Source: Squalus acanthias (taxonomy: Eukaryota). Taken from it: a stretch of DNA of 64,000 bases. Under the pieces are notes generated by a model. That model ran no database searches. It was not told the DNA's origin and saw only the letters and a program-made list of their open reading frames with translations. Made by a program: the position numbers and the translations under genes. Every line of letters begins with the position of its first letter. Positions within the stretch are counted from its first letter, which is position 1. Below, piece after piece: positions 2 to 64,000 of this stretch. The stretch lies in contig CM059431.1 of the NCBI GenBank assembly GCA_030390025.1, positions 121,584,001 through 121,648,000 of the forward strand. Reading direction: 5' to 3'.

Positions 2-625
2 GCTGACATCTTGGGATTTGTGGAAGTATTCCCGGAGCCTCATTCTCCTGATGAATTCCTCCGTGTCTGCCGCGAGACCGATGGGGTCCATTTTGGTGGT
101 TGGGCAGAACTTGAGCCCTAGGGCGAGAACTTCGATTTCGTCTGGTTGAAGGGTGTGGTCCGACAGGTTGACGATGGACTTCCCTGTGGTTGCAACCATG
201 GTACCGGGGGAGGCTTGGTTGCTGCTGGTGGTGATGCCGAGTTTCTCAAGCTTCCTGTTCTTGATGCGCATGTAGGCAGCGTAGTTCCGTTGCCTCGTCT
301 GTTTGGTGGTGTCTCGTAACTGGTCTGCTGTGTCCTGAGCACAGGCTGAGAGCATGGACTCTATCTTGGTTTCGAGGTTGTGGCGTTTGCTGTAGAGCTG
401 GTGTACGAGATGGTTGAGGAGTGTGCGAGAGGTACGACGGCAGAGTCTCTCAGCGTAGTCTGTGTTGTATGTCGACTTGAGTGGGTTCGTGATCTGTAGT
501 CCTTTCGGGATCTTGTCTGCTTTCTTGCATCTCTGTAGATACTTGATGTCGGTGTCGATATGCGCGATCTTCTTGGCGATTCTCTCCACTTTGAGCCGGC
601 AGTTTGTGGTGTCGATAGTGGTCAT
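2..625 (-). CDS. Penelope-like ORF N-terminus, open to window edge
   Basis: Manual translation MTTIDTTNCRLKVERIAKK...IVNLSDHTLQPDEIEVLALGLKFCPT...EEFIRRMRLREYF; the VNLS..L...E..VL..GL.FCP motif is typical of Penelope RT N-termini. Confidence 0.85.
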   Translation of the reverse strand, partial: MTTIDTTNCRLKVERIAKKIAHIDTDIKYLQRCKKADKIPKGLQITNPLKSTYNTDYAERLCRRTSRTLLNHLVHQLYSKRHNLETKIESMLSACAQDTADQLRDTTKQTRQRNYAAYMRIKNRKLEKLGITTSSNQASPGTMVATTGKSIVNLSDHTLQPDEIEVLALGLKFCPTTKMDPIGLAADTEEFIRRMRLREYFHKSQDVS

Positions 626-712
626 GATGCGGAGATGCCGGTGTTGGACTGGGGTGGACAAAATTGAGAGGTCGCACAACACCAGGTTATAGTCCAACAG
701 TTTTATTTGAAA

Positions 713-750
713 TCACAAGCTTTCGGAGCTATCACTCCTTCCTCAGGTGA
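713..750 (-). ncRNA. Minimal type I hammerhead ribozyme motif
   Basis: Minus strand TCAC-CTGAGGA-A-GGAG(TGATAG)CTCC-GAAA-GCTT-GTGA: stem I TCAC/GTGA, CUGAnGA core, stem II, GAAA, palindromic AAGCTT stem III. Confidence 0.75.
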
Positions 751-1085
751 AGTAAATTGGATACAGAATCGCCAGAGCATATATAGATGGAAAAAAAAAG
801 CATGTGTACTTTACAATTGCAGACCAATAAATTAAATCATCCTGACTATCTGCCGAGGTGTGATAAAGTTAATTAAGTCAGCCAGGAAGGTACCACATCA
901 AAAGACATAGCAAGATACAACTGAGACAATGAGGTGTAGTCGCAGGGGTTCCAACGTGTCAAAAGCTGCCGTCTGTATGTAAAACGAAAAGCTTTAAAAA
1001 AAAAATTACTTTTTTACTGGGAAAATGTTTACTTTTTTACTGGGAATCACATCTGTGAACAAGCTAACGACGACTCGAGTCCGGA

Positions 1086-1718
1086 TCACGTCATGTATCG
1101 TGACATAAACCCAAGATCCCGATTGAGACCGTCTTCATGAGTTCGGAACTTGGCTATCAGTTTCTGCTCGATGATTTTGCGTTGTCGTGTGTTTCTAAGG
1201 TTGCCTTGGAGAACGCTTACCCGCAGATCCGAGGCTGAATGTCCTTGACTGCTGAAGTGTTCCCCGACTGGGAGGTAACAATCCTGCCTGGCGATTGTTG
1301 CGCGGTGCTCGTTCATACGTTGTCTCAGTGTCTGCATGGTCTCGCCGATGTACCATGCCGCGGTGCATTCTTTCCTGCAACGTATGAGGTAGACAACGTT
1401 GGCCGAGTCACATGAGTATGTACCATGTACCTGGTGGGTAGTGTCCTCACGTGTGATGGTGGTATCTGTGTTGATGATCTGGCATGTCTTGCAGAGTTTG
1501 CCATGGCAGGGTTGTGTGGTGTCGTGGTCGCTGTTATCCTGAAAGCTGGGTAATTTGCTGCGAACGATGGTACTTCTGAGGTTAGGCGGCTGTTTGAAGG
1601 CAAGTAGTGGAGGCGTGGGGATGGCCTTAGCGAGGTGTTTGTCGTCATCGATGACATGTTGAAGGCTGCGAAGAACATGTCGTAGTTTCTCCGCTCCGGG
1701 GAAGTACTGGACGACGTA
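1086..1718 (-). CDS. Penelope-like GIY-YIG endonuclease (C-terminal part of ORF, 5'-truncated)
   Basis: PCHGKLCKTC...NVVYLIRCRKECTAAWYIGETMQTLRQRMNEH...EQKLIAKFRTHEDGLN. Confidence 0.9.
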   Translation of the reverse strand, partial: YVVQYFPGAEKLRHVLRSLQHVIDDDKHLAKAIPTPPLLAFKQPPNLRSTIVRSKLPSFQDNSDHDTTQPCHGKLCKTCQIINTDTTITREDTTHQVHGTYSCDSANVVYLIRCRKECTAAWYIGETMQTLRQRMNEHRATIARQDCYLPVGEHFSSQGHSASDLRVSVLQGNLRNTRQRKIIEQKLIAKFRTHEDGLNRDLGFMSRYMT

Positions 1719-1899
1719 GGATAAACAAGCACATGGACTAGCAACTCATCCTGTCTCTGTCCTTCATTTGTTCTACCCACATGTAATACACTTTTGGTGA
1801 CGAGAATGGTATCCCAAAGCCATTTTTAGGGATCGTGGAAGGACACCGTGTTTAACCTTCATGTGGAAAAATTTAAGGTACACAGGAACAGTCACTGTT

Positions 1900-2783: not shown

Positions 2784-4515
2784 ATGCTGAAAAAGTATGA
2801 AAGCATGTTCTCAGACAGTTATGAGGGCATCACTGGGTATGACGCGCATATCCGCATCAAATCCAATGCGAAGTCTGTCTATTGTAATGCAAGGCCGGTC
2901 CTCTATGCGTTGAAAGGTCAGGTGAAGGAAGAGCCAGCGAAGCTCAGAGAGAACGGAGTGCTAGTAAAAACTGACAAAAGTGAATGGGCTACCCCGATTG
3001 TGGTAGTGCACAAAGCAGACAAAACTGTACACTTGTGCGGTGACTACAAAGTTACTATCAGCCAAGCAGTTGATGATGAGCAGTACCCATTACCTACATC
3101 ACAAGATTGGTATGCAGCACTCTCTGGATCAAAGGTTTTCTCCAAGCTTGACCTGTCGCATGCTCACGCTCAGCTGAATGTTGACAAAGAGAGTCAACAG
3201 TAACTCACTATCAACACACACAAGGGACTGTACTCATACACCAAGCTGCTGTATGGTGTAAAGTCCTCCCCCAAAATCTTCCAGGCTACGATGGATAAGA
3301 TTTTGCAAGGAGTTTCAAATTGCTTATGCAATCAAGACGATGTGCTGATCGTAACAAGCAGTGAGGAAGAAAATCTAGAAGTTTTAGATATAGTGCTTCA
3401 AAGATTGAATGCCCACAATGTCAAATTGAAAAGGAGCAAATGTGCTTTTGTGCAGCCCGAAGTTACGTACCTTGGTCTGAAAGTTGATGCAAATGGCTTG
3501 CAACCAGTTAAGGAAAAGGTTGATGCTGTCATCAATGCTCCAAAGCCACAGAACGTGTCTGAGTTAAGATCTTTCCTTGGAATGGTCCAGTACTATTCAT
3601 GTTTCTAACTTGAGTTAGCGACCATGTTAGCTCCATTGCACGAGCTCCTCAAGAAGGATGTCCAGTGGAAGTGGACGAAAGCATAACAGGAAGCTTACGA
3701 TGCTTGTAAGAGAAGTCTCTCTAGTGATGCTCTACTTGTGCACTACGACACAGAGCATGAGCTTAAGTTAGCGTGTGATGCTTCCAGTTACGGTGTGGGA
3801 GCTGTCATAAGCCTCATAATGGATGACAGCCAAGAGAAACCAATCACGTTTGCATCGCGAACCCTCACAAAGATCGAAAGAAACTACGCACAAATTGAAA
3901 AGGAAGCACATTGCCATGTGTTTGGAATCAAGAAATCTCAACAGTTCCTGATCAGCAGAAAATTTACCTTGATAACTGATCACAAACCGCTCTTAACAAT
4001 ATTGGGGCCCAAATCTGCCATCCCTACAATGGCCACATCAAGAATGCAACGTTGGGCAGTGTTGTTGTCACAATATGACTATACGATTGAATATCACACT
4101 TCAATGCAGAACACAATCGCAGATGCCTTGTCCAGGTTGTCACATGAGGACTCATGTGTTGGGAGTGAAGGGGAGATTTTCACGCTAGGTGCAGTTGACA
4201 AAGACTTTCCCGTGAATGCAACTGAGATTGCAGATGAGACTCAGAAAGACTCAGTACTGAAAAGAGTCTATGAAAACACCTTGAATGGATGGACTGATAG
4301 TGTATGGACACAGAATTGAAACCATTCCATAATAATCGTACTGAATTGTCTTGTGAGCAAGGTTGTATCAAGTGGGGAAACAGAGTGGTGGTACCTACTT
4401 TTTTGAGAGATAGAATTCTGGCCTGAACTTCATACTGAACATCCAGGGATCATCAGTATGAAATCAATTGCAAGAAGCTTTGTTTACTGGCCTGGATTGG
4501 ACAGTGATCTTGAGT
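2784..4515 (+). pseudogene. pol: Gypsy pol (RT, RNase H, integrase Zn-finger start) with stops; protease and integrase core missing
   Basis: SEWATPIVVV..CGDYK, SKLDLSHA, NQDDVLI, LACDASSYGVGAV, NYAQIEKEA, TDHKPL, ADALSRL. Confidence 0.9.
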
Positions 4516-15151: not shown

Positions 15152-16470
15152 AATGCAGCTTTGAGTCTGCAGGCAGTTACATGCTCTGGCCACTGGATGG
15201 CGCTGCAGATCAATATTTCAACCCTCTCCATTGGACATCTTTATCAGCCATGTTGCTTTTGCTGTCTACAATGCAAGTATCCAGACAACTTATGGGTTCT
15301 TTTAAAGTTCATTTTCTTTTATGTTAACTTTTGCACCCTCCTAGGTGATGTTCGATCACTACTGCCTGCCTCCTCCTGCAGTTCTCTGCCTGATGTTTAT
15401 GCCTCGGGTGCCACTCGTTTTCCAGAACTTCAGTTCCTCTGTTAGCTCCCCCATTTTGTTTTTATATTGCTGCTATTTTGACCCACTCACGCTTCGCAGT
15501 ACCACCATGTCAGACTGCTCGGGTCTCACAGTGTCACCATTTTGGCCCACTCAGGCCTCCTGTTTGCATATTTCAATCTGGTTGGGCCTTCTGCTGCCAA
15601 CATTTTGGGCCTTGGGCTGTGCGCCCCCATTTGCCCATTTAGGCCTCAGAGGTATAGAGGCAGCAAAAGAGGGCGACATGGGGGTATTCAGAGTGGTGAT
15701 GTGTCAGAAAGAGAAGGGAATATGGGGGCACATAGTGAAAAAGGTGGACGTGGGTGGCAGTAAAAGAGGGTTCAGGAGGACCTCGTTGTTCGGGGGGGGG
15801 GGGAGGCCTAGGGCAGGGGTGGCGTAACCTTTCCTTGTGGAGCCCGAGGAGCACTCCTGCTTCTTCTGGTGCCACGAGGAAAGTAAAAAAAAAGAAGATT
15901 CAGTTACCATTGTGGCCACTTCTGGCCCAGCCTCCTTTTCCCGCTGCGTTGCGGAGTGAGGAAGCCACAGGGTTTCCCAGTACAGGCCTCCAATTAAACC
16001 TGCAGTGGGCCCCCGATGACTTCATTGGAGCTCCACCTGCATATTTAAAGACTGGCTTCCAGCAGGTAGCACACTCGCCTGCTCATACAACAGGTTGAGA
16101 TCGGAATCCGTGGAAAGACAGTGGGCTGGATTTTGATACTGGGGCGGGTTGGGGTCGTGTTATCCACTTTTCGTGTTATCCACCCGACTACAATTGGATG
16201 TGGGAGACTGATACGATTTTCACCTAATTGGGCAATTGAGTTCCAGCATGTGGGAACCCATGACCCAATTAGTGTTTTCAGTCTGAAAGTCGCCTCTGAT
16301 GATGTCATCATTGCTGCTGCATTGAAGGTCTTCAGAGACTGCCTGGCCTTTGCTGTGAGAGGACCTGGAGGCAAAATGAACAGCAGCAGCCCTAAGTCTG
16401 CTCCCAGATATTTTTGCACCACCACTCCCAGATATGTCTCCCATTCACCACCAGATCAATCAATCAATCA

Positions 16471-17844
16471 GACTGGAAAACTGCTAATGTAACACCCTTA
16501 TTTAAAAAGGGCAGTAGACAGAAGGCTGGTAACTATAGACCGGTTAGCCTAACATCTGTGGTAGGTAAAATTTTGGAGTCCATTATTAAGGAAACAGTAA
16601 CAGGACATTTGGATAATCATAATTTAATAGGACAAAGTCAGCATGGTTTTACGAAGGGGAAGTCATGTTTGACAAATTTGCTGGAGTTCTTTGAGGAAGT
16701 AACATATAGAGTGGATAAAGGGGAACCAGTGGACGTAGTGTATTTAGACTTCCAAAAGGCATTTGACAAGGTGCCACACAAAAGATTATTGCTTAAGGTA
16801 AAAAATCACGGAATTGGGGGTAATATTCTGGCATGGATAGAGGATTGGCTATCTAACAGAAAGCAAAGAGTTGGGATAAATGGTTCATTCTCAGACTGGC
16901 AATCAGTAACTAGTGGTGTTCCACAGGGGTCAGTGCTGGGTCCCCAACTCTTCACAATCTATATTAACGATTTGGAGGAAGGGACCAAGTGTAACATATC
17001 AAAATTTGCAGATGATACAAAGATGGGAGGGAAAGTAGTGAATGAGGAGGACATAAAAAACCTGCAAGGGGACATAGACAGGCTAAGTAAGTGGGCAGAG
17101 ATTTGGCAGATGGAATACAACACTGGAAAGTGTGAGGTGATGCACTTTGGCAGGAAAAATCCTAGAGCAATTTATTATCTTAATGGCAAGAAACTGGAGA
17201 GTACTGAAGTGCAAAGGGATCTGGGGGTCCTGGTGCACGAAACTCAAAAGGTTAGTATGCAGGTGCAGCAAGTGATTAAGAAGGCAAATGGAATGTTGGC
17301 TTTCATTGCTAGGGGGATAGAATATAAAAATAGGGAGGTATTGCTTCAGTTGTACAAGGTATTGGTGAGACCGCACCTGGAATACTGCATACAGTTTTGG
17401 TGTCCTTACTTAAGGAAAGACATCCTTGCTCTCGAGGCAGTGCAAAAAAGGTTCATTCGGTTAATCCCGGGGATGAGGGGGTGGTCATATGAGGAGAGGT
17501 TGGGTAGATTGGGACTCTACTCATTGGAGTTCAGAAGAATGAGAGGCGATCTTATTGAAACATATAAGATTGTGAAGGGGTTGGATCGGGTGGATGCGGG
17601 GAGGATGTTCCCGATGACGGGTGAGACGAGAACTAGGGGGCATAGTCTTAGAATAAGGGGCTGCTCTTTCAAAACTGAGATGAGGAGGAACTACTTCACT
17701 CAGAGGGTGGTAGGTCCATGGAATATGCTGCCACAAAAAGCTGTAGAAGCTACAACATTAATTAAATTTAAAACAGAAATAGACAGTTTCCTAGAAGTAA
17801 AGGGCATTAAGGGTTACGGGGAGCGGGCAGGAATTTGGACATGA
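16471..17844 (+). CDS. CR1 LINE ORF2 reverse transcriptase, 5'-truncated but uninterrupted
   Basis: DWKTANVTPLFKKG, NYRPVSLTS, QHGFTKGKSC, YLDFQKAFDKV, GVPQGSVLGP, KFADDTK, RPHLEYC. Confidence 0.95.
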   Translation, partial: DWKTANVTPLFKKGSRQKAGNYRPVSLTSVVGKILESIIKETVTGHLDNHNLIGQSQHGFTKGKSCLTNLLEFFEEVTYRVDKGEPVDVVYLDFQKAFDKVPHKRLLLKVKNHGIGGNILAWIEDWLSNRKQRVGINGSFSDWQSVTSGVPQGSVLGPQLFTIYINDLEEGTKCNISKFADDTKMGGKVVNEEDIKNLQGDIDRLSKWAEIWQMEYNTGKCEVMHFGRKNPRAIYYLNGKKLESTEVQRDLGVLVHETQKVSMQVQQVIKKANGMLAFIARGIEYKNREVLLQLYKVLVRPHLEYCIQFWCPYLRKDILALEAVQKRFIRLIPGMRGWSYEERLGRLGLYSLEFRRMRGDLIETYKIVKGLDRVDAGRMFPMTGETRTRGHSLRIRGCSFKTEMRRNYFTQRVVGPWNMLPQKAVEATTLIKFKTEIDSFLEVKGIKGYGERAGIWT

Positions 17845-28611: not shown

Positions 28612-29302
28612 ATGGCTGCACATCTCGGCGACTCTTAGTTTTGCCGAAGAAAGAGACCGGCGCTGCACCTTTCCTCTCCCGGACCTCATCCCACTTTGAG
28701 CCCTGAACAAACCCCACACTCCGAGCCCTGAACAAACCCCACACTGAGCCCTGAACTCACCCCACACTCCCAGCCCCGAACTCACCCCACACTGAGCCCT
28801 GAACTCACCCCACACTGAGCCCTGAACTCACCCCACACTCTGAGCCCTGAACTCACCCCACACTCCCAGCCCTGAACCCACCCCACACTCCGAGCCCACC
28901 CCACACTCCGAGCCCCGAACTCACCCCACACTACAAGCCCCGAACTCACCCCACACTCCCAGCCCTGAACTCACCCCACACTCCCAGCCCTGAACTCACC
29001 CCACACTCCAAGCCCTGAACTCACCCCACACTCCGAGCCCTGAACTCACCCCACACTCCCAGCCCTGAACTCACCCCACACTCCGAGCCCTGAACTCACC
29101 CCACACTCTCAGCCCTGAACTCACCCCACACTCCCAGCCCTGAACTCACCCCACACTCCGAGCCCTGAGCAAACCCCACCCCGAACCCTGACGAATCTTA
29201 GTTTTACCAAAAAAAGTGTCTTTCCTCTCCTGATACCCAGGCAGGGGAGTTCTCATCGCCGTCTTCGACACGGAAGTGGATCCCGGAGCACAAGGACTCC
29301 AG
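28612..29302 (+). pseudogene. TPP2: Captured TPP2 exon 1 fragment split by a minisatellite
   Basis: ATG 28612; LPKKETGAAPFLSR (28641-28682); [27 protein letters not shown] (29240-29302); vertebrate TPP2 N-terminus as recalled: [39 protein letters not shown]. Confidence 0.88.
28686..29190. repeat. Minisatellite, 25-bp unit CACTCC(C/G)AGCCCTGAACTCACCCCA, about 20 copies
   Basis: Direct tandem periodicity, no unique spacers. Confidence 0.95.
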
Positions 29303-30703: not shown

Positions 30704-33261
30704 GGGCTAGAAAATCATTATAGCCAAGAAATGGGCAGTGTTAGACTAAAAATGGTTAAGTTGCGCGAACCTGAAAAATCATCTAGGCTGCACGCAAAAT
30801 TCGTTCTCACTTCTCATTAAAATGATTGCAGTCATGATTCTCGTCTAAAAAGCCAAGCTAATTGGCGTTACACTGAAAAGATGGAGCAATATCGAGGGCA
30901 GTCTAAACGCAAGTAATGATTGCCATAGGCTTTTTAAACTACTTAAAGGGAAGGCTCATTGATGCTGCAGCACCTCATACTCAGCATTGTTGGGTGTGCA
31001 ACTGCCTCAACAACCATAAGAAAATGGGCAAGGAGAAGTAGCACTTAATTACAAATCCTGATGGCAGATTGTCGCCCCGATAAAACTTTGGAGGCATTGA
31101 TTTTAGCAGTGGAGGGAGACGGGTGATCCTGTATCCGGCAACTGGCAAGAGGTCCTTGACACAAGTCTGCCAGACTATGTGGAGAGAGGTGGCAAACCAC
31201 GTCATGGGCAGCACTATGCTCTCCACGACCCACACCCGGTGCAGGAAGAAGTTTAACGACCTCACACGGGTGGTCAGGGTGAGTGAATGCTTCAACAAAT
31301 GCTACATACCACCATCTGTACCACAAGCTTCACACACTGCTCAATGCACCACACCCCCAGCACTCACCCACCAACAATCTCTACCTAGCACCCACATCTC
31401 ACACCTTGCATGCAATGACAGCTATTCAACTATGGCAGGCACAAGGGTCATTTGTTATTAGAATTCATGTGATATGTGTGATATGTTTATAGATAAAATT
31501 ATTAATTGTGTTTAGAATATTTTGTGGTCTCTCTCATTTCACCTTTGCGCTCAGGAGGACACTGTGATATGCTATGAGACAGTGATTGTATGATGGGGAT
31601 CTGGTGTGCTACGAGGATCTGGGGTTTCATTCATGCGATTGGAGTCTGATGAGCCGGTCATGGACAACCCATCTGGAAGGCCAATTGTTTTGCTGTCTCC
31701 GCCCTCCCTGTCCTCCTCATCCTCCTTTGTCTTGTCATCCTCCTAAAGTGGTCCCACAATCCCTGCTGGCAAGGGCGGTGCCCTCATGATGGCCAAGTTG
31801 TGGAGCATGCAGCAGACCACCATGAAATGGGACACCCGCTCAGCCGAGTACTGGAGGGCTCCTCCTGAGCGGTCAAGGCAGTGGAACTCTTTCTTCAGTA
31901 GGCCGATGGTCTGCTCGATGATGTTCCTGGTGGCAGTATGGCTCTCATTATATGAGTGCTGGGCACGAGTGTTGGGGTTGCGGAGGGGAGTCATGAGCCA
32001 GGTGAAGAGTGGATAGCCCTTTATCTCCGAGCAGCCACCCACGAGCTTGACGTGGTGATGGGAAGAGTGCTGGCAGACCGATCTGGCGCAGGATGAAGGC
32101 ATTGTGGCTGCTTCCAGGATAGCGGGCATTGATACTAAGGATTCGCTGTGTGTGGTTGTACACCAACTGCACATTAAGTTACAGAAGATCTCAGGATTGT
32201 TATGCACTGCCCGCAAAGCCATGTGGGTGCAGACGATGGCGTCCTGCACCATGGGAAAGCCCGCTATCCTGGCAAAGTCGGCACACTTGTCTTGCTTCTC
32301 TCTGGTGATTGGGAAGCCAACGTAGTCCCTTCTCCTGCTGTAGAGAGCCTCAGTGACCTCCCGGATGCAGCAATGGACGGCGAACTGTGAGATGTTAGAT
32401 ATGTTTCCTGCTGCAGACTGGAAGGATCTGCTGGTGAAGAAGTTGAGGGCCACGGTGACCATGCCTGCCACTGGGAGAGCTGTGGTCGTCCTGGTCTGAG
32501 GCTGGAGGTCTGGTTGTAGGAGGTGGCAGAGTTCTGTGACCACCTCCTTCATGAAGCGGAGCCTTCTAATACACTGCTCCTCATTTAATCGAAGGCAGGA
32601 GAAGTGATGTCGAAAGACCCTAGGAGGGTAAGGCCTCCTGGTGAGAGCCCTGATGGCCCTCCTCCTCCCTCTGCGCACATGTTCCTGTCTTTCTCGCTGC
32701 CTCCGCTCCCTCTGCCGTAGATCCTGGAGGGTGAGGTCCACTGCCAGTATAGCCCGCAAGAGTTTTAGCAAGTGTTGTAGGTTGGAGCTTTTCAGAAATA
32801 ATTATGGAGTTTTGTACTTGCCACAACACTCCCTGATACCAAAGAACCTTGAAATGACTAAAGTAAACTCTTGCAGTAGCAGGAATTAGAACACAGCCAC
32901 TCAAACTTCACAAACCTGTCAGATGCGAGTGATTGGTGAGGATCCCTTTAAATCGCATTGCTGGAGCCGGCTTCATGCTGCTGCCGCCACCTCAACCTGT
33001 CGTTGTTTTCTCCAGCCGGTAAGTTCATTGACTGTAATGAAGGTGGGAGATTGGGCATCAAGTCAGCGTTGCACACTCACTGATGTCATGATCTCCATGA
33101 TGGCGAGGTCCCTGATGATCCAGTTCAGCGGCAGCGCTACCGGCAAGACCGATATGGCGTGCAGTGCTGGAATCAGCATCAGGTGTCGTTTAAGCTCTCA
33201 ACGGTGTTTTACCGCCCTCTCGTGGCACTAACGTGTGGTGCAAACCGCACACATTTCCGCC
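30704..33261. mobile_element. PIF/Harbinger element remnant (Myb + strand ~31020-31440; transposase - strand)
   Basis: MWREVANHV...TRCRKKFNDLTRVVR|GTGAGT; ends approximate. Confidence 0.8.
31743..32771 (-). pseudogene. Harbinger DDE transposase (HARBI1-like), frameshifted
   Basis: RRPYPPRVFRHH, GFPMVQDAIVCTH, YPGSSHNAFIL, WLLGDKGYPL, YNESHTATRNIIEQTIGLLK..F.CL, CCMLHNLA. Confidence 0.9.
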
Positions 33262-47197: not shown

Positions 47198-48859
47198 TGT
47201 AAAGTTTCGCAATTATCGCGATTCAAAATAACACAAGAGAAGCAGATTCGTTTGATCAGTTTTATTAAACGAAATGCTGTCCTGATAATAAAGGACACAG
47301 AAGCCTGTAAAATGGCCACCGTGCATCGTGGCAGAAGCTTCCAGAAACACAGTGGGCAGACAAAATGGCGTCGAATATACATTTAGTATAAGATTGGATC
47401 ATACTCGGTAAACACTAATAAAGACAGGACGCAACCCGTTTGCATTTGGAACAATAGCAAAGATATAAGTGCTGGAATCGTTTTCCTATGCACAGTAAGG
47501 ATCATTGAACTGGGCAATCGAAGGCCCATCCAGACACATCAATACACAAATACCCCCCCCCCCCCCCCGGCTCTACAATGAGAGAGACATTGACGGGTGA
47601 TTAAGCAAGTATTCGGGGGCCCCCAAAACCAGTCAGGGAGATGATTCATACACATCCTGGCTGGGTCAACAATGGGGAAACATTAACGGATAGATGGCCA
47701 GTTTCAGGTGCTACCGAAACCCGTTAAAGAAGATAATCGCCCCATGCTGGGAGTATTGAGAGCCAATATTACACAAAGGACAAACATTAAGATTTGAGCG
47801 GGAGATAAGCGGACACATCACTATAACTATAGAGAACAAATGTCCATCGGTCTCTTGACTCTTATGCTCTTATCTCTGCTGACTCTTGACTCGGGCTGAA
47901 CTCTTATCCCTATCCTCTGGTAACGCTCTGCTGGACGGGCAACCTTCTGTGTTTTCTCTCTGGACTTTGTGGACTCTTGACTCTTAGCCGTACTGGTCGG
48001 TTATTCGAGTGTTGGGTGGAGCTCAATCGGTACGAGCCGCCCCGACAAGGGCAGGTAACAGGGTACACCATCCCAAGCGTCGGTAAACGGTGTCTGGACC
48101 CGGAGGCCGAAGGAGAAGAAGACGAGAAGAAAATCCACGTGCCGCCACGGTCAGTAAACCCCGACCGCGCCGAAAATATAAATACAGGACTTTTCTTTGA
48201 GTTCTACCAACTACAACCTGTGTTGAGCACAGGAAGACTCTTCTTTGAACTGTGTCTGAGGTCCGTTGGGTTCTTCATGACAACAGGGAGTCTGGCCTGC
48301 TTTTCGCAGCAGCGAAAGTAAACAAGTGGGGTACAGAGACCCTTCCAAACACGTGACAGTCAGGCGCTGCAGCGAAACGAGCTGAGCTGCCTCACTTTAA
48401 AAATCTCCGAAGTAACACGAGTGGTGAGCATGTTTTCCGATCCTACAAATCTAGACGTAGTGTAGGTATTATTAAGGGAGGGTGTTTTAATAAGGTTAAG
48501 ATATAATGTGTTCCCCTTTCTACAATGTGCCGTGTGTTCTCCATTTCCACAGACCAAGCTTTATGAATGTATGTATACTTGTACTATCGTTGATTTGCGC
48601 CTATGACATGTATTTCATGATTTTAGACGCATGCAATAAAGATTTCCATTTCGTACTATTCAACCGGGTCTATTTGAGTTTTTCTCTGCATTACTGCTCA
48701 CTGCACCTAAGTCCAGTGTTAGAACCGTAAGGGCGAGTGGGTCGAACCACTCACAGGTGCTTATTGCAATAAGGCTGGCCGGAGACCAGAGCAAGCAATA
48801 GTATTAGGCAACGAAGGCCTAACCTCGCACAAGCACCGTCTGAGACACGCCCCCTTACA
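47198..48859 (+). repeat. 5' LTR (~1.66 kb)
   Basis: TGTAAAG...CCTTACA, AATAAA at 48635, PBS directly after; 3' ~500 bp match 63513-64000 in reverse complement. 5' boundary inferred from the TG end only. Confidence 0.8.
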
Positions 48860-48864
48860 GAAAA

Positions 48865-48882
48865 TGGCGACCGCGGCAGGAC
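48865..48882 (+). promoter_or_regulatory. Primer binding site (tRNA not assigned)
   Basis: TGGCGACCGCGGCAGGAC 5 nt after LTR end. Confidence 0.75.
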
Positions 48883-48936
48883 ATTGGCAGCAGGAGAGTA
48901 ATGTTTTAGACCCTAATTTTGAATAGGCGAAATGTG

Positions 48937-50664
48937 ATGGATGAGAGGGTAGCCGACTATGTGTTTGGGAAGGTTAACTTAACCAAAAAGTGGATAAGTG
49001 ACCTACTGATGGATAAGCGTCTGCTAGACGCCGCCATCAAGTGGACAGGTAGTAAAGATCATAAGAAGTCGGTAGAGAAAGCGGTCTGGCTGATGTGCTA
49101 CAAGAAGCAAGTCCAACTTTCGGACCAGGTCATTGCAGCACAGGCAGCTCAGATCAGGGAATTGGAAACTGAGATGGAGGAAAAGGTTACGGGAGGACAG
49201 AGACTCATTGCATCATTGAATGCGTTACATCAGGAACGCCAAATAGTAGCTAACCACCACGAGGCTAAGATTGATTACCTAGAATGTCAGGTCACGGAAG
49301 CAAAATTAAACGAGGGTAGGATTAGAGAACGGTGTGTCTGCCTAGCTAACCAGATAAAAGCCCAGGAAGAAAGCTTGAAGGGAGTTAGGGCGGCATACAA
49401 GATGGCCCTCGAGGATAGGCATGAGGGAGCCGACCACAGTGTTTGCCAGAGGGAGATAGAGAACCTAAGGGAGTCCCTGAGTAAGGCAAACGGCTTGGTG
49501 TGTCTCATCAGCCCGTCAGCGAGCCAGCCACAGGTGGGTAGGGAATTCCCAAAATCCCTACCGGAAAAGGCAGAAGAGGTATCTGCCACTGCGCCCTCCG
49601 CGCCACCCAGCTATACGGCAACCTGGGTAAGGGAGGAAGTGGTGGAAATAGAGAAGAAGGTTCCCGAGGTAGGACAATCCCCGGAGGTAGTGTCGAGACC
49701 GAGACCGATGTGTCCGCTCCGAGGTCACAAGAGAGGCCCGAATGCGGACAATGGGGAAGACGGGGATATCCTGAGCCAACTTGTATTGCCCCACAGCTCA
49801 CACCAGCTGAGAGCAATGATTAGCCATGTACGGAAGCTGTCCGAGTCAGTTGACCCTTCCGTACATTTTAGAGAAGTAGAACAGACCGCAGCGATTAATG
49901 GCTGCGACGACGAGGAAAAGACCAAAATGTTGCTGTTCTCTTTAGATAGCTCGATCCTTCAGTGTCTCTCCGACGAGAGCAAGAAGGGAAATAAAACCTA
50001 TGGGGAGTTACGGGACGAGGTCCTAGAAGTGTTAGGGGCGGATGACGAAGGTCCGTTCTTCAGATTGAGTCAGACCGTACAGATGGAGGGAGAACCCCCG
50101 AAGGTTTTCGCCGACAGACTGTGGCCAGTATACCAGCGTAGCTGCCCAGGTGCGCCAGCGCGCACCTATCTGGGCGGCGCCGGGAAAGCTCATTGGCTCA
50201 GGTGCATGGTAGCCAACAGCTTGCCAGCCGTCAGGGAGCAGGCCAGTGCGTGGTTTGATCCCACTAACCCCGCCACAATGGAGGAGTCTGTCCTAAATCG
50301 ACTCACCATAGGGTATCGGAACACTAGGAGCATGGGAGCGCGTCCCCTTAAGGGAAAGGTGCATGAGGCAAAGCCCGCAGCTCCGGCTCAGAAAGAGTGG
50401 CATCAGGAGGGAAATCGCGCCCCACAAACCAGTGGTGTTTGTTACGGGTGCGGGAAGACAGGTCACTGGCGTAAAAACTGCAGGAATCCCTGGAAGGACT
50501 CCAGGGACAAAGCTCCCGCAGTCCGAACCCAAGCGCCTGTCTCCGAGAAAGGAGCTGGTGTGCCTATCTATCCCGATGCGATAGAATCAATGTTAGGAGC
50601 CATGCGGTCTCTCATGACCTCACACGGGGAGGTAGCAACAGCCCCATACAACCCAGACTTCTGA
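48937..50664 (+). CDS. gag: Gag polyprotein, open (first ATG 48937)
   Basis: N-terminal coiled coil, PSAPPSY late motifs (49594-49614), capsid-like Q.EGEPPKVFADRL, CYGCGKTGHWRKNC knuckle (50440-50481). Confidence 0.9.
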   Translation: MDERVADYVFGKVNLTKKWISDLLMDKRLLDAAIKWTGSKDHKKSVEKAVWLMCYKKQVQLSDQVIAAQAAQIRELETEMEEKVTGGQRLIASLNALHQERQIVANHHEAKIDYLECQVTEAKLNEGRIRERCVCLANQIKAQEESLKGVRAAYKMALEDRHEGADHSVCQREIENLRESLSKANGLVCLISPSASQPQVGREFPKSLPEKAEEVSATAPSAPPSYTATWVREEVVEIEKKVPEVGQSPEVVSRPRPMCPLRGHKRGPNADNGEDGDILSQLVLPHSSHQLRAMISHVRKLSESVDPSVHFREVEQTAAINGCDDEEKTKMLLFSLDSSILQCLSDESKKGNKTYGELRDEVLEVLGADDEGPFFRLSQTVQMEGEPPKVFADRLWPVYQRSCPGAPARTYLGGAGKAHWLRCMVANSLPAVREQASAWFDPTNPATMEESVLNRLTIGYRNTRSMGARPLKGKVHEAKPAAPAQKEWHQEGNRAPQTSGVCYGCGKTGHWRKNCRNPWKDSRDKAPAVRTQAPVSEKGAGVPIYPDAIESMLGAMRSLMTSHGEVATAPYNPDF

Positions 50665-51453
50665 CTGGAACCGGTGCAGCCTGCCTACCTGTGTCCCTTT
50701 GAAAGACACGCACAGGAGGGGGCCTCCTGTAAGGAGGCCAGGTTAAAAGAGCAGGCCTTGCGGGAGGAGAACGCCCGCTTAATGGGGAAAGTAGATGGGC
50801 TAGAAGGGCAGCTTAGAGACATAAAGGCAGCCTACAGGGTAGCCAGGAGCCGGGAGTATGAGGATTTAAACCATGGGCCCTGTGAGGAAAGGATAAAAGG
50901 TCTGACCCAAGCCCTATCCAAAGCCAGAGGGATGGTTTGCTCAACAACCCCGGCGGAATTCACCACCCCGCAGTTGCAAGCCATGGTAGCAGAGTTGCCC
51001 AAACTAAAACAGAATAGAAATCTGCAGCCTCCAGCAGGCGAGATTACACAGAATGCACAAACAGGGGCGGTGGCCTGTCATAGGGGAGGGGCCAAACCTG
51101 CGAGTGGGGACTCTCAGCCCCGGGTAGAACCGCAGGGCACACAGGCCGGTAAAGCAGCCTGTGTGAGGGGAGAAGACATTTTGGAAAAGTGTAGGATCTT
51201 TTCTTGGTCTTGGGATTCAGATGAGGAAGAGCTCGGAGAGCTCGACCAAGTTAGTGACCCGGTCGGAGAGGTGGTGGGGTCGGAGGACGGAGGTTTCGCC
51301 CCCGACCCAAGCATAGGGGAGATAGGGATTGCAAGTGGAGTTCCACTTACTGGGGAAACAAGTAGGGTGGAGTCGAAACCGCAGATCCCGAGCCCAGGGG
51401 GGCGGAGCCAGGGGAGACAGAGCCGGCGGCTGTGGTGGGACCACAGGCCGTGA
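50665..51453 (+). CDS. ORF2, in frame with gag after one TGA; contains a diverged second Gag coiled-coil segment
   Basis: Same frame as gag; 50734-50940 aligns ungapped to gag 49297-49503 (25/69 aa identical by hand). Confidence 0.7.
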   Translation: MEPVQPAYLCPFERHAQEGASCKEARLKEQALREENARLMGKVDGLEGQLRDIKAAYRVARSREYEDLNHGPCEERIKGLTQALSKARGMVCSTTPAEFTTPQLQAMVAELPKLKQNRNLQPPAGEITQNAQTGAVACHRGGAKPASGDSQPRVEPQGTQAGKAACVRGEDILEKCRIFSWSWDSDEEELGELDQVSDPVGEVVGSEDGGFAPDPSIGEIGIASGVPLTGETSRVESKPQIPSPGGRSQGRQSRRLWWDHRP

Positions 51454-51973
51454 CGGTGGAAGTCTCGGTTCCCTGTCCGTTGGTCCTGGAAATCTTGCCC
51501 AAGGTAGCCCTCCGTAGGTCAAGTCGGACACCCCAGCCCAGGAAGTTGTGGCCAAATCCCTCGTACACCCCCAGGCGTAAGTTCAAGGCAGCCCAGGGAG
51601 ATCCCAGTCCCAGCACAGCGTCGACAGGCTGCGGCAGATCAAAGGAAGGGGTCAGTTCCCCCCCGCCACTGGGAAAAGCTCGTGGCAGCCTTCGCAGACT
51701 TTAGGTAGGCCGCCCTGGGAACGGGCGGCGCTGTACAGTTAAGTTTAGGATAAGTTTAAGTTTATAGTTTTTTTAAGTTTGGTAAGATTGTAGTTTAATT
51801 TTTAAGTAACTGGTAAAATGATGGGAGTTAGTGATAGGAATAGTTAAAGTCTATCCAGCATACATGTCTTTTTACGTGAGACGAGGTCAAGGGACCCGCT
51901 CACCCTTCACAAAGGCCAGAGACTCTTGGGAGGCTGGCTACATCATTTTATCTGATCACAGGAACCAGGAAAG

Positions 51974-53814
51974 ATGGAAAGGATTCTGATAGTGCTCGCA
52001 ACGATCGGATATGGATTGGCCTATCGGGGCCTCACCAAGGATGTCGTTGTGTTTGGTTGCTCTGGGGACACGGCCCCCATCGCGACGGATGGGACCGGGT
52101 AGCGAGAGGCTGAGGAAACCGTCACTTATTTCCACAAGGGAAGGTGGCCGGGATGGCTGGGAACGAATTTGACGGAATACTCCAGCGCATCCGGATTTGC
52201 CTACAAAGAGACTTCTTCACTGTATCCCAGGGTGAGGATCATTGCACCCAGAATCAGCGTCACCGTCGGCAAAAGGATTTGTTTGACATGCAATGGGAAG
52301 GTCCCATTGAGCCGATGGTGGTGGTTACGGAAGTTAAGCAAGACTATGAGAAATTCCTCGGTCGAGTGGGAGCGATTGGGTAACAATACCCATCGGACAA
52401 TTACGGGGACTAATGGACAATTGAAAGTCTGTTGGGACAAATGGTGGGAACCGAATGAGGGAATATATGTGTGTATGTGGGATCAAAGTACGTTTGCCCC
52501 AAGGGTATATCCATATTTTTCCTACGACAGTGGCAGGATGACGGGAAAGGGATGAGGTGGGATCTCAGCACCAGGGGGTGTGGAGCTCCATTCTCTCCGA
52601 TCCCAGTAAACGCCACTGAACTCATCACGCACCCACACAAGTCTCCGCCCACGATTCCGGTGGCTTTGGCTCAGGAGGAAGGGTGCCCTAAAACCACTAA
52701 GGGGCCCGGGAATGGTCTGGTACTGGTGCCAACAGATCAGATACTATATCAAGGGGTACATTACGCGGTGGCCTCGGTGATTTTAAATCTCTCCGAGGTG
52801 CATTTACCAGAGTGGTGCCCCAAAGAAACGGAAAAATTGTACCAGGTCCTGTTAACAAACATGTTCAGGCAATTTTATGAGTTTGATTTTGCAGAGGTTG
52901 ACAAAACAAGCTTATACACCACACCACACGAAGTTTTGGGTCAGGTGGGGAGACAAAGAAGGGGTGTTGTGAACGATGTGTTCACTGCTTTTAATACGGG
53001 AACATCTGTGGTCAACGCTCTAGACAATGTGGAGCTGCAGACCCAGATCAACGGTTTAAAAACACAGTTAAAAAGCATCCTCAGAAACGAGAACAAGGTA
53101 GTAGGGTCTGATTTACATGAGGACCAGGCCATAACACTACACTTAAAAGAGATTATAGCAGAGCTGGAGAAGCATGCGAGAACGGTAAATGCCCTGATCA
53201 GGGAAGATCGGAACGCATCCGATCAAGCTGCGCAGAACGAGGTGTGCGTACTATACGGGGTGTGGTTACTGGGCGAGGGCCGCAGTAATTTGAAGGATTT
53301 AAAACAAGGTTTGGTCCCGTCCTGGATAAGTAACAAACACCTGCAGGCGCTCCACCCTTTTCAGAACGCATTAAGCCCGTGCCAGCTCAGGCTAGCCTCA
53401 GAGGCATACCCAGTCCCCGTGGACTGCGGACGGTCAAATCATACTATCATGGGGATAGTAGTACGGATGTCGGTGTTGGGCGACACAGCAAAGCCCGCCC
53501 CGGTGTACCGGGTGGAGAACATTGGTGTCATTCAGGGGGGAGCCCACATTCGCTACGCAGCGGTCCCACCTTACGTCATCCGCTGGGAGCAAACGATGAC
53601 AGGTACCGACCTTTCGGGTTGTCGTGGCTGGGGAGCACACATCATCCTGTGTCCCCAGCTCTTGAATGCCTTTTTAACACCACAATGCGGGTTCAGAACG
53701 GCTGGCGCGAAGCCCATGAATTGCACCATGGAAGCAATGACACAAGATCATATGCCCCCACAGGTGGCATACATAGGGGGTGGAACGTATTGCATTACCA
53801 CTGCAGCGCATTAA
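51974..53814 (+). pseudogene. env: Envelope glycoprotein: signal peptide, Ig-like domain, class I F-like fusion protein; TAG at 52100, frameshift ~52500-52550, C-terminus truncated
   Basis: MERILIVLATIGYGLA; VTVGKRICLTC..WWW..GQLKV..NEGIYVC; furin RQRR (52951-52962) + GVVNDVFTAFNTGTSVVNAL + heptad; Cys-rich region; no TM anchor. Confidence 0.85.
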
Positions 53815-54846
53815 TACCATGCCCTTATGCTCATCTATTGTCATAACAGAATCTGTTGTTAGCCAGCCCACCCCTTTCTTTACCGCTTTTTATAAATTCT
53901 TTGCTATTACGTTTATACAAGCTACAGGATTTATTTTTACACTCCTTCTTTTCCCTCTTTATTTTCCTGGTTTCCACGAATAGACATTAGAAAATGGGAC
54001 ACATGCTCTATTTGAATACTAAAGTCAAATTATTTGAAATTTTAACCTGCAATGAAATTAAAATTCATTCAAATTTGCTTGGAGAATTTTACTTATTTGG
54101 ATGACTTACTGGAATCCCTGATTCATCTTATTCAAGCTAAAAGTACAATTAAACAGAAATGAGTTAAAACAGCCAAATTGGAGGCATCTTGCTCAAAGTT
54201 TTGGAAACAAAATGCCAGCAAGAAGCAAATGTAAGATCTGCAGTGAAAATCTCCCGAGTCAAAATTAGAGTTTTGTGATGCATACAAATATGAAAGAAAG
54301 CGAAAAGAAGTGAAATACCCATGTTTGACCAAGTGGTTTACTTTCCAATAAGCCGGTGGATAGTCACAGTGTGAAATCAGGCAGGAGGTGGGTTAGGAGA
54401 TTCAGATTGGCATATTCTAGAGTTGGGTAGGGGTCGGGTTAGCAGAGGGTGCAGGACACCTAGGTGTGTTCACATACACAAATCTTTGAAGGTGCCAGGA
54501 CAAGTTGATAAGGCTGTTAAAAAAGCATACGGGATATACTTGGCTTTATAAATGATGGCAGCAGTGCCATTTTGGAGCTCACACTCCAGCCCATGCCCTC
54601 TCTTAACCTCACACAGCTGAACACGCGTTAAGCAGTATGAAGGACCCCCACCAGTGCTATTTAAAGGGATCAACAACTACTTACAAGTTAGATGCTGGTT
54701 GATTTCTTCTGGCTGTTGTTATGATTCTACAAGTGTTTGGTGCTTTCCATAGTTCTTTCAAGTTGCTGAAGTCGACAGGGAGTGGCAGGCGCTGAAGGAC
54801 TTTTTCCTGACTTCAAGGCATCTGCACGAATTAGTTTCTCCCAGAC

Positions 54847-55860
54847 ATGGGTGCACTAGTTGGCATTCCCCTTGGAATACAGCATGACTGGGAGAATGAG
54901 CAGAGGCTGCACAGAGCAGGACAAGCTACTAGAAGAGGGAGGAGGGGGAGATGGGTTCTCAGCTGGAGGCTATATCCATCCAGGGTGTCCAGGGAGCAAT
55001 TCTCCTACCTGAACCTCAGCGAGGAACAATGTGTGAGATGTCTGAGCTTCAATAAGGACCTCCTCACTGTAATCTGTCACCTGCTGCAGCCACAACTGCA
55101 ACCTCAATGGAGGGCAAGGACCTCATTGCCAGTGGCTGTGAAGGTGACCATGGCGATCAACTTTTATGCGTCTGAATCCTTCCAGGTGGGAGCTGGAGAT
55201 ATTTTCAACATCTCGCAGTTTCCCGTCCACTGTTGCATAAGGGTGGTCATTGAGGCTCTCTATTCAAAGAGAACTGACTACATTTCATTCTCTCTGGTAG
55301 AGACCAGCAGGTGGAGTGAGCATACAGGTTCACTAGGATTGCAGGCTTCCCCATGGTGCAGGGTGCCATTGACTGCACGCACATTGCTTTGCGAGCGCCG
55401 CATGTCAACTCTGCCATACACCGGAACCGAAAGGGATTGCACTCTCTCAACGTCCAGCTGGTGTGCGACCAGAGGTAGCGAATCATGCATGTCAATACCC
55501 GGTATCCTGGCAGCAGTCACAACGCCTTCATTCTGCAGCTGTCCGCTGAGTCTTCTGCATTTGAGCCACCATGGCAAACCAAAGGGTGGCTACTGGGCGA
55601 CATGGCTCCTGACTCTGGTGAAGAACCCACACACACGTGAACAGCATGCATACAATGAAAGTCATGCTGCCACATGAAATGTGATAGAGTAGACCATAGG
55701 CATGCTGAAACGATGATTCTGCTGCCTGGACTACTCTGGAGGAGCCCAGAAGTACTCGGCAGAGCAGGTGTCAAGATTCGTCGTGGTCCACCGCACAACC
55801 TCGCCATTATAAGGCAGCAGTCCTTGCCACCAGCTATACAACGAGCAGCTGAGGAGCAGG
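54847..55860 (+). pseudogene. Harbinger transposase (HARBI1-like), disrupted
   Basis: YPSRVSREQFSYLNLSEEQC, GFPMVQGAIDCTH, YPGSSHNAFIL, YNESHAAT. Confidence 0.9.
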
Positions 55861-63512: not shown

Positions 63513-64000
63513 TGTAAGGGTCACGGACTGGTGCGAGGTGAGGCTTTCGTTGCCTATACTATTGCTTGCTCTGGTCTCCGGCCAGACTTTTGCAATAAAC
63601 ACCTGTGAGTGGTTCGACCCACGCGCCCTTACGGTTCTGACACCTGGACTTAGATGCAAGGAGCAGTAATGCAGAGAAAAGACTCAAATAGACCTGGTTG
63701 AATAGCACAAAATGAATGTCTTTATTGCATGGCGTCTAAAATCATGAAATACATGTCATAGGCGCAGATCAAAGAGTGTACCTGTATACACACGTTCATA
63801 AAACTTAGTCTATGGGAATGGGGAACACACGACACATCGTAAAAGGGGGAACACATTATACCTTAACCTTATAAACCACCCTCCCTTAATATACCTAAAC
63901 TACGTCTGGATTTGTAGGATCGGGAAACATGCTCACCACTCGGCTCACTTCGGAAATTTAAAATGAGGCTCTCGGCTCGTTTCGCTGCAGCGCCTGACTG
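63513..64000 (-). repeat. LTR of the same family as 47198-48859, inverted, runs off window
   Basis: Reverse complement matches ~48357-48859 and ends CCCTTACA at 63513. Confidence 0.9.

Follow-up and report, generated by a model that had tools for sequence, protein, structure and literature searches.

A pol-less, probable satellite among probably SnRV-like endogenous retroviruses of Squalus acanthias and the cassette that stands in place of its pol

Here we describe a retrovirus-like element in a 64,000-nucleotide stretch of the Squalus acanthias genome (assembly GCA_030390025.1, contig CM059431.1, C7 in the contig labels used below, positions 121,584,001 to 121,648,000, forward strand; this whole stretch is called the window). 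The element starts at window position 47198 and runs in the order long terminal repeat (LTR), primer binding site (PBS) for an arginine tRNA, gag, UGA, a second open reading frame (ORF2), spacer and env, with pol absent. Our analysis suggests that it belongs to a non-autonomous, satellite-like subfamily of SnRV-like endogenous retrovirus (ERV), which probably recombines with pol-bearing helpers and needs a translatable ORF2; that the family is helper-dependent is very likely. In place of pol stands a cassette carrying a piece of foreign Gag, and this cassette is found on gags belonging to lineage A, in many of its sub-lineages, and to a second lineage, B. The literature searched, with most subscription journals, Repbase and Dfam outside the search, held no account of this family, of a pol-replacing cassette common to lineages, or of a pol-less satellite of the SnRV clade. 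What appears to be new is a satellite that has gag and env but, where pol would stand, a foreign-Gag cassette common to two lineages; non-autonomous ERVs as such are known (IAP 1-delta-1, Bik-1/2, ENS-1 and canid ERV-Fc).

The pol-less copy in the window, its helper and its relatives

All parts of the window copy lie on the forward strand. The 5' LTR (47198..48859; 1,662 bp, TG...CA) matches both LTRs of sister copies at both of its ends, and 5 nt past it lies an 18-nt PBS (48865..48882) complementary to the 3' end of tRNA-Arg(TCG) of the same genome, where the complement plus the T-loop letters has 424 matches and ARAGORN called tRNA-Arg(tcg) at 2/2 excised loci matching the PBS complement. 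We take SnRV to use an arginine tRNA primer as well. The gag gene (48937..50664) is open over 575 codons plus TGA and encodes an N-terminal coiled coil, a helical capsid-like region and one CCHC knuckle, the last a weak match below the Pfam cut-off (E 0.0011). Long helices appear at Gag residues 63-185 in a low-confidence model; the single-sequence fold model of Gag was poor (pLDDT 44.9) and gave no Foldseek match, and the capsid domain is a putative assignment from position and homology only. Past the TGA, ORF2 continues in frame with gag for 262 codons. The pol-replacing cassette (50638..51086) is made up of a foreign gag end, a UGA-CUG context, 12 Pol-start codons and ~130 codons of diverged Gag, and is followed by a post-integrase Pol C-terminal tail (51087..51704), acidic then basic and containing LRRSSR. 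A spacer of 270 nt separates ORF2 from env (51974..53819), whose ATG at 51974 lies 1,309 nt past the gag stop and which encodes an F-type class I fusion protein with a hydrophobic leader, a possible immunoglobulin (Ig)-like head and an RQRR furin site (52951-52962). No protease (PR), reverse transcriptase (RT), RNase H or integrase (IN) family match was found in the seven window ORFs scanned, and the pol-less arrangement that the original prediction had read from the letters is borne out. The window copy itself is dead, with a frameshift in ORF2 near 51375, a stop in env at 52100 and an env frameshift near 52479, and its similarity to all sister copies stops at 53819, the transmembrane (TM) segment, polypurine tract (PPT) and 3' LTR being missing.

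An autonomous close partner is present in the same genome for both lineages. The pol-bearing locus L031 is 96% identical to the window copy over the LTR end and gag (internal positions 1-1778), and again over the Pol tail and env, and so provides the helper from which the element had been proposed to borrow its Pol. Its own Pol comprises 1,437 open codons after TGA-CTA, in the order PR-RT-tether-RNase H-IN, and its env is split by an insertion. Set against L031, the sole difference of the window copy is the ~450 nt (50638-51086) in place of pol. ORF2 is accordingly a chimera of 12 Pol-start-like codons, ~130 codons of diverged Gag and the Pol tail. In a sister copy, ORF2 residues 142-346 are 90% identical to helper Pol residues 1233-1437; the junction in the window copy lies at 51087. 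LRRSSR falls at residue 1374 of the 1437 in helper Pol, beyond both the integrase core and its SH3-like C-terminal domain. The earlier suspicion of an integrase-end remnant was sound in that this basic tail is a remnant of the Pol C-terminus. What had been called a second Gag module proved to be only part of a foreign Gag, joined on to the Pol tail: a coiled-coil end followed by the first capsid helix, with 35% amino acid (aa) identity over 74 aa to the element's own lineage-A Gag and 44% aa or 64% nt identity to lineage-B Gag.

The source of this Gag piece was sought among several candidates. A simple duplication of the element's own gag was rejected, as there is no DNA match to its own gag or to the helper past the Pol start, and lineage-B gag was rejected as too distant (64% nt). 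Two protein searches (755 and 282 candidates) did not find the donor, the ESM Atlas yielded only unnamed clusters below 0.9, and an index search likewise showed no look-alike. The cassette's gag end was also rejected as a marker for helpers, with 20/20 loci that have such a gag end running into the cassette. A separate pol-bearing locus, L108 (C4:17656780-17657080), has a gag end resembling that of the cassette and a protease start unlike those of the A and B helpers, and may be a lead to the donor lineage.

Over the internal region there are 16 full-length colinear pol-less copies, 91-100% identical, among the 42 matches listed, which come from 32 scored of 8,797 candidates and include partial copies as well; a subtype among these matches carries a duplication in the ORF2 tail. 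The 3' LTR is present in 14/15 sister copies, and perfect 4-bp target site duplications (TSDs), all different, flank seven of the nine copies that were readable out of ten tried. With its LTRs, PBS, PPT and TSDs, this enzyme-less structure has been inserted many times independently, which is the mark of a non-autonomous LTR element. Within each of 11 non-tandem copies the two LTRs agree at 96.8-100% over 416-539 bp, and ages taken from these values are uncertain tenfold: 1% LTR divergence amounts to about 23 million years at the shark rate of 2.2e-10 per site per year assumed by Han 2015 (PMC4422223), or to about 2 million years at the mammalian rate. Among the 16 full-length copies gag is open in 7, ORF2 in 12 (339-348 codons) and env in 3 (about 780 codons), such that env is broken in the window copy and in 13/16 of these.

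Genome probes gave 1,591 matches for the cassette start, 286 for the cassette middle, 2,396 for RT and 0-1 for reversed controls, with 307 and 574 for the lineage-specific gag-A and env-A probes, counts that reflect the lineage each probe was drawn from and so indicate orders of magnitude and not a census. With the cassette this numerous beside RT, recurrent insertions at distinct TSDs and a helper in the same genome, the layout is far from single-copy, and the proposal of a non-autonomous, satellite-like family is supported. Along C1, the sampled cassette-start loci show gag end, UGA and cassette joined in 20/20 and reach the Pol tail in 19, and env follows in the single C1 cassette locus that was extended (89% over 311 aa). 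Tandem pol-less units measure 7.4-7.8 kb, against 11.9 kb for a pol-bearing pair including an insertion. Moreover, runs with two other organism labels contain contigs that span the gag-cassette as well as the cassette-tail junctions, which indicates that the pol-less layout is not confined to the Squalus acanthias genome. Two runs that we guessed to be RNA also contain the cassette as contigs, which attests to its presence alone.

The shared cassette and the frame behind the gag stop

Among eight cassette loci without the env probe, two are lineage-A variants and six join the same cassette (91-96%) to another tail. Five of these six have an env ~66% identical, and the three checked all have a gag ~65% identical, which defines lineage B. 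Starting from B gag instead, 20 loci without the exact cassette probe comprise 11 that run into protease (helpers), eight that run into the cassette and one that does neither. The cassette is shown on gags of both lineages and on many A sub-lineages. In the Gag tree of lineage A, 25 pol-less and 13 pol-bearing copies interleave with seven label changes, at least five of which are forced by supported branches, and a single pol-less clade is rejected (p-AU 3.7e-5), on a tree that recombination within gag distorts and in which 12 of the helper gags were picked by one RT probe. Synonymous divergence differs fourfold, being 0.15 in gag and 0.04 in the cassette. The simplest reading of this mosaic would be that satellite and helper RNAs packaged together have repeatedly exchanged sequence by template switching, and one pol-replacing cassette moving between lineages 35% apart would be a fossil record of cross-packaging and of satellite-helper dynamics in the vertebrate germ line.

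The reading frame of ORF2 has been kept through many rearrangements. At 53/55 loci with both anchors it is intact, a count that leaves out 25 loci without the second anchor and skips five duplicates. These loci fall into 13 length classes from -174 to +69 nt, of which 11 are in frame, including all eight classes with at least two loci, and both exceptions are single copies. By comparison, shared indels in the LTR, spacer and 3' untranslated region are in frame in 10/102 cases, although this non-coding control consists mostly of 1-nt indels, and one third is the fairer null (about 5e-4 for the seven non-reference classes if independent). No stop and no frameshift in ORF2 is shared among the copies compared. 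We consider frame conservation a clearer sign of selection than the ratio of nonsynonymous to synonymous rates (dN/dS), strong but not decisive, and the presence of the cassette in two lineages, readable through so many rearrangements, likewise suggests selection; in our judgement the frame behind the UGA is likely under selection.

Pairwise dN/dS among real copies is below 1, interval included, for the Gag N-terminus (0.22), the capsid region (0.31), the Env fusion core (0.24) and the Env N-terminus (0.40). As gag and env are exchanged with helpers, this purifying selection is not assignable to the pol-less lineage, and the constraint may have been earned in helpers. With env broken in so many copies as well, the idea in the original prediction that the satellite supplies structural proteins is a possibility only. 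The cassette gives 0.67 (0.36-1.29) in lineage A, 0.47 (0.27-0.88) in lineage B and 0.60 (0.36-0.95) for both pooled, its coiled-coil core 0.46 (0.12-1.93; 77 loci) and the Pol tail of ORF2 0.81 (0.58-1.14). The expectation of dN/dS below 1 held for gag and env; in ORF2 the dN/dS signal is weak overall (0.5-0.8).

We propose that the satellite RNA would be packaged with helper Gag-Pol and then reverse-transcribed and integrated by helper enzymes through its own LTRs, arginine PBS and PPT, a route suggested by the structure of the copies. Template switching in the homologous flanks, on the left the gag end and Pol start and on the right the Pol tail, would move the cassette onto an active helper. 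Ribosomes would read through the gag UGA into ORF2, as is required for pol in the helper, with selection keeping the frame open. Translation could then help the RNA in cis under loose constraint on its residues, either by protecting it from nonsense-mediated decay (NMD) or by co-translational packaging, for which mouse IAP 1-delta-1 is a parallel. Readthrough is known to occur in the UGA-CUA context (PMC13517186) and, depending on which ORF follows, can protect the RNA from NMD (PMC5360307); in IAP 1-delta-1, the fusion created by the deletion promotes transposition in cis (PMC7411935, citing Saito et al. 2008). Both NMD protection and the IAP cis effect fit a frame that is kept while its residues drift, and, given that the frame is under selection, we consider it slightly more likely that being translated matters in itself than that a specific protein function does. 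The hundreds of rearranged copies form a natural series, frame kept and residues drifting, in which one may ask why non-autonomous retroelements translate an ORF that looks useless, be it for RNA stability, cis packaging or the protein.

Several points weigh against this proposal, among them the limits already given with the probe counts, the Gag tree, the left-out loci and the null for the frame count. Readthrough and expression are themselves presumed. Among 77 loci selected for a TGA at this position the stop context is UGA-CUG in 54 and UGA-CUA in 23, such that the majority does not have the classic context, and five windows examined for a stimulatory RNA structure after the UGA gave no significant fold (z -1.5 to +1.4). 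The length classes are partly nested and not all independent, and some junctions use codon-aligned homology. In addition, cassette dN/dS below 1 in the B and pooled sets leans towards some constraint on the protein.

This last point would suit a reading in which the readthrough product is a functional Gag-Pol mimic, its cassette coiled coil pairing with Gag coiled coils and thereby favouring co-assembly of the satellite RNA with helper Gag and Gag-Pol. We find it possible but doubtful. The first ~45 cassette codons, including the heptad stretch, are kept in every variant seen, that stretch is duplicated in the commonest sampled class, the pooled cassette and core values are 0.60 and 0.46, and the cassette has crossed between lineages ~65% identical; however, the interval of the core value spans 1, most copies have lost the cassette's downstream half (probe matches fall from 1,591 at the start to 286 in the middle) and the tail is near-neutral. 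Taken further, and offered only as a tentative idea, the cassette itself might be a selfish, portable "satellite-maker" module that recombines at the Gag/Pol boundary and in the Pol tail, with a Gag-Pol mimic whose captured Gag coiled coil wins helper enzymes. If true, such a portable module would turn any helper lineage packaged with it pol-less, across several host species and at least two lineages ~65% identical, and would amount to a defective-interfering module with its own germ-line genealogy and with copy numbers near those of its helpers. At the other extreme the cassette could be the neutral scar of one old recombination, pol-less RNAs having spread because they are shorter and the frame having been kept by codon-aligned switches and the sampling of few founders. 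The tail and lineage-A cassette ratios are compatible with neutrality, and both the 69-nt duplication and the re-joins to Pol were made at homologous peptides. We nevertheless think this unlikely, given that a 138-nt deletion is in frame despite only 4 nt of microhomology, that changes of 3, 6, 9 and 15 nt are in frame too, that ORF2 has no shared stop or frameshift, and that no cassette-free pol deletion was seen among the loci sampled by gag probe, though the probes favour cassette loci.

Two further explanations concern the copies rather than the cassette. Pol-less copies might have been kept or amplified for the host, for instance as restriction factors (dominant-negative Gag or Env) or as Gag genes with a role in development, for which zebrafish Bik-1/2 set a precedent (bioRxiv 2024.03.25.586437), and gag is indeed open in the window copy and in 7/16 full-length copies; yet hundreds of dispersed copies with private stops and frameshifts fit selfish spread and no locus is singled out, which makes a host benefit very improbable. 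That a few deleted proviruses gave rise to the copies by gene conversion or segmental duplication, and not by reverse transcription, is scarcely credible: three C17 loci share the same truncation and there are tandem arrays on C1 and C3, but the seven different perfect TSDs largely refute it, the two LTRs of a copy resemble one another more than those of other copies, and the PBS is of two types. A helper-dependent satellite that recombines with its helpers is the reading we prefer.

Env fold, virus affiliation and known systems

The Env of a sister copy, in a model built on a 26-row alignment (pLDDT 57.5), gave matches to the F proteins of paramyxo- and pneumoviruses (hPIV3 F, E 1.6e-12; NDV F, Z 10.9, rmsd 19.6 over 364 aligned residues), which upholds the F-type Env of the original prediction. 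The same model also matches foamy Env (Z 8.3-8.6) and walleye epsilonretrovirus Envs (E 1.1e-10 and 1.8e-8), and for this reason an F-type Env is not diagnostic of lokiretroviruses, even though the element's Env has the features of theirs: likeness to Mononegavirales F, a signal peptide, an RXKR-type site, a coiled coil and a TM segment. Among the 50 BFVD matches listed for the model there is no SnRV entry, SnRV Env possibly not being in that database. The matches to foamy and walleye epsilonretrovirus Envs favour an F-type Env early in retrovirus history. As a separate observation, the N-terminal Env domain encoded at window positions 52103-52555 is beta-rich and shows weak signs of an Ig-like fold (Pfam Ig_3 E 0.13, with 0.13-0.27 across the scans made; antibody chains E about 1, in a stretch of low pLDDT).

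The Pol of the helper points elsewhere than to lokiretroviruses. Its dual RNase H (RT_RNaseH 470-602 and RNase_H 650-792) is common to all retroviruses. In the alignment of Wang & Han (PMC7947760), compared at motif level, PFG(Y/L) is present in 24/24 lokiretrovirus RT rows where the helper has PQGF, and a 9-residue helper RT motif matches the SnRV rows only, 3/3. Compared by hand, about 69/138 helper RT residues (about 50%) are shared with SnRV, versus about 52/138 (about 38%) with Loki-Lch. An RT tree of 32 rows, SnRV not among them, places frog and coelacanth Pols beside the helper, all within a retrovirus-like group (100/100) that is separate from gypsy. The nearest PDB enzymes to its RT-RNase H are those of MLV and foamy virus, ahead of Ty3, and the best named integrase matches are 'NYNRIN-like' frog and coelacanth proteins (40-42%) with the same non-loki RT motif; an integrase closest to CGIN1/NYNRIN is a mark of lokiretroviruses, whose RTs form a clade sister to canonical retroviruses. 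We rejected the lokiretrovirus identity on the RT motifs, so that this part of the original prediction is not supported; the element is probably SnRV-like by these comparisons. An F-type Env on an SnRV-like Pol is a warning against using such an Env as a lokiretrovirus marker.

Similar to SnRV (PMC2717909), the element has a coiled-coil Gag with a single zinc finger, and gag and pol lie in frame across a stop, a layout seen in the helpers of both lineages. The two differ in the stop context, UAG-GGC in SnRV and UGA-CU(A/G) in the element, in the length of the Env tail, 136 residues against about 30, and in the 3' ORF of SnRV, for which the element, with about 400 nt from env stop to LTR, has no room (PMC12193657). 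SnRV-like ERVs are reported from elephant shark as CmiERV lineage I (Han 2015, PMC4422223). With lokiretroviruses the element shares an F-like Env with a furin site, dual RNase H and an N-terminal Gag coiled coil ('smc'), and in the lokiretrovirus screen 0/3 chondrichthyan genomes were positive (PMC7947760).

Among non-autonomous relatives, the gag-only lokiretrovirus derivatives Bik-1 and Bik-2 also lack pol and depend on a partner but have neither env nor a Pol-tail fusion (bioRxiv 2024.03.25.586437). Mouse IAP 1-delta-1 is likewise non-autonomous, with a gag-pol deletion, an in-frame fusion and a need for helper proteins; as described in that source it is a plain deletion in one family and without env (PMC7411935). 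In contrast, our element has its Gag whole, env kept, a foreign Gag piece inserted, a fusion that would need readthrough and a cassette in two lineages. In canid ERV-Fc1(a), genomes packaged together likewise come to share a lesion through template switching, as we suggest here, but there the lesions are stops, frameshifts and an env deletion, whereas the lesion of the element removes pol and keeps the frame (PMC6407205).

Further features of the element and neighbouring repeats

In many A and B copies an ATG overlapping the PBS opens an in-frame Gag extension of ~24 codons (window 48864-48936; L031 1-152; L062 202-310), which an indel near 48914 puts out of frame in the window copy; this ATG may be the true Gag start. 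By eye, short hydrophobic-Cys/Ala motifs stand at likely Gag and Pol domain borders in the window copy and L031, and three to four times in ORF2, and may be protease sites or crossover homologies. Two pol-less copies (L014 and L015, about 1495-1520) have an 18-nt PBS different from the rest, presumably for another tRNA-Arg isodecoder, which would trace alternative tRNA priming. At C26 39.0-42.2 Mb, tRNA-Arg(TCG) genes stand in long tandem arrays whose repeat unit of ~1.62 kb includes tRNA-Ser(GCT) as well. Pol-less tandem arrays (units 6.4 and 7.7 kb) and clusters resembling segmental duplicates were seen at C3 64.29-64.32 Mb, C1 143.66-143.67 Mb, C6 55-57 Mb and C17 54.2-54.6 Mb.

Elsewhere in the window, 63528-64000 on the minus strand belongs to another LTR of this family (88.5% identity); it is the 3' part, followed by non-element DNA, and represents a solo or a 3' LTR. 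Other repeats, including a 25-nt tandem repeat, occupy 28690-29203, 2-1745 (minus), 3687-4319 (plus), 16396-17844 (minus), 31743-32801 (minus) and 54835-55677 (plus), and from their translations we take them to comprise Penelope-like, gypsy RNase H-like, LINE RT and Harbinger-like transposase fragments.

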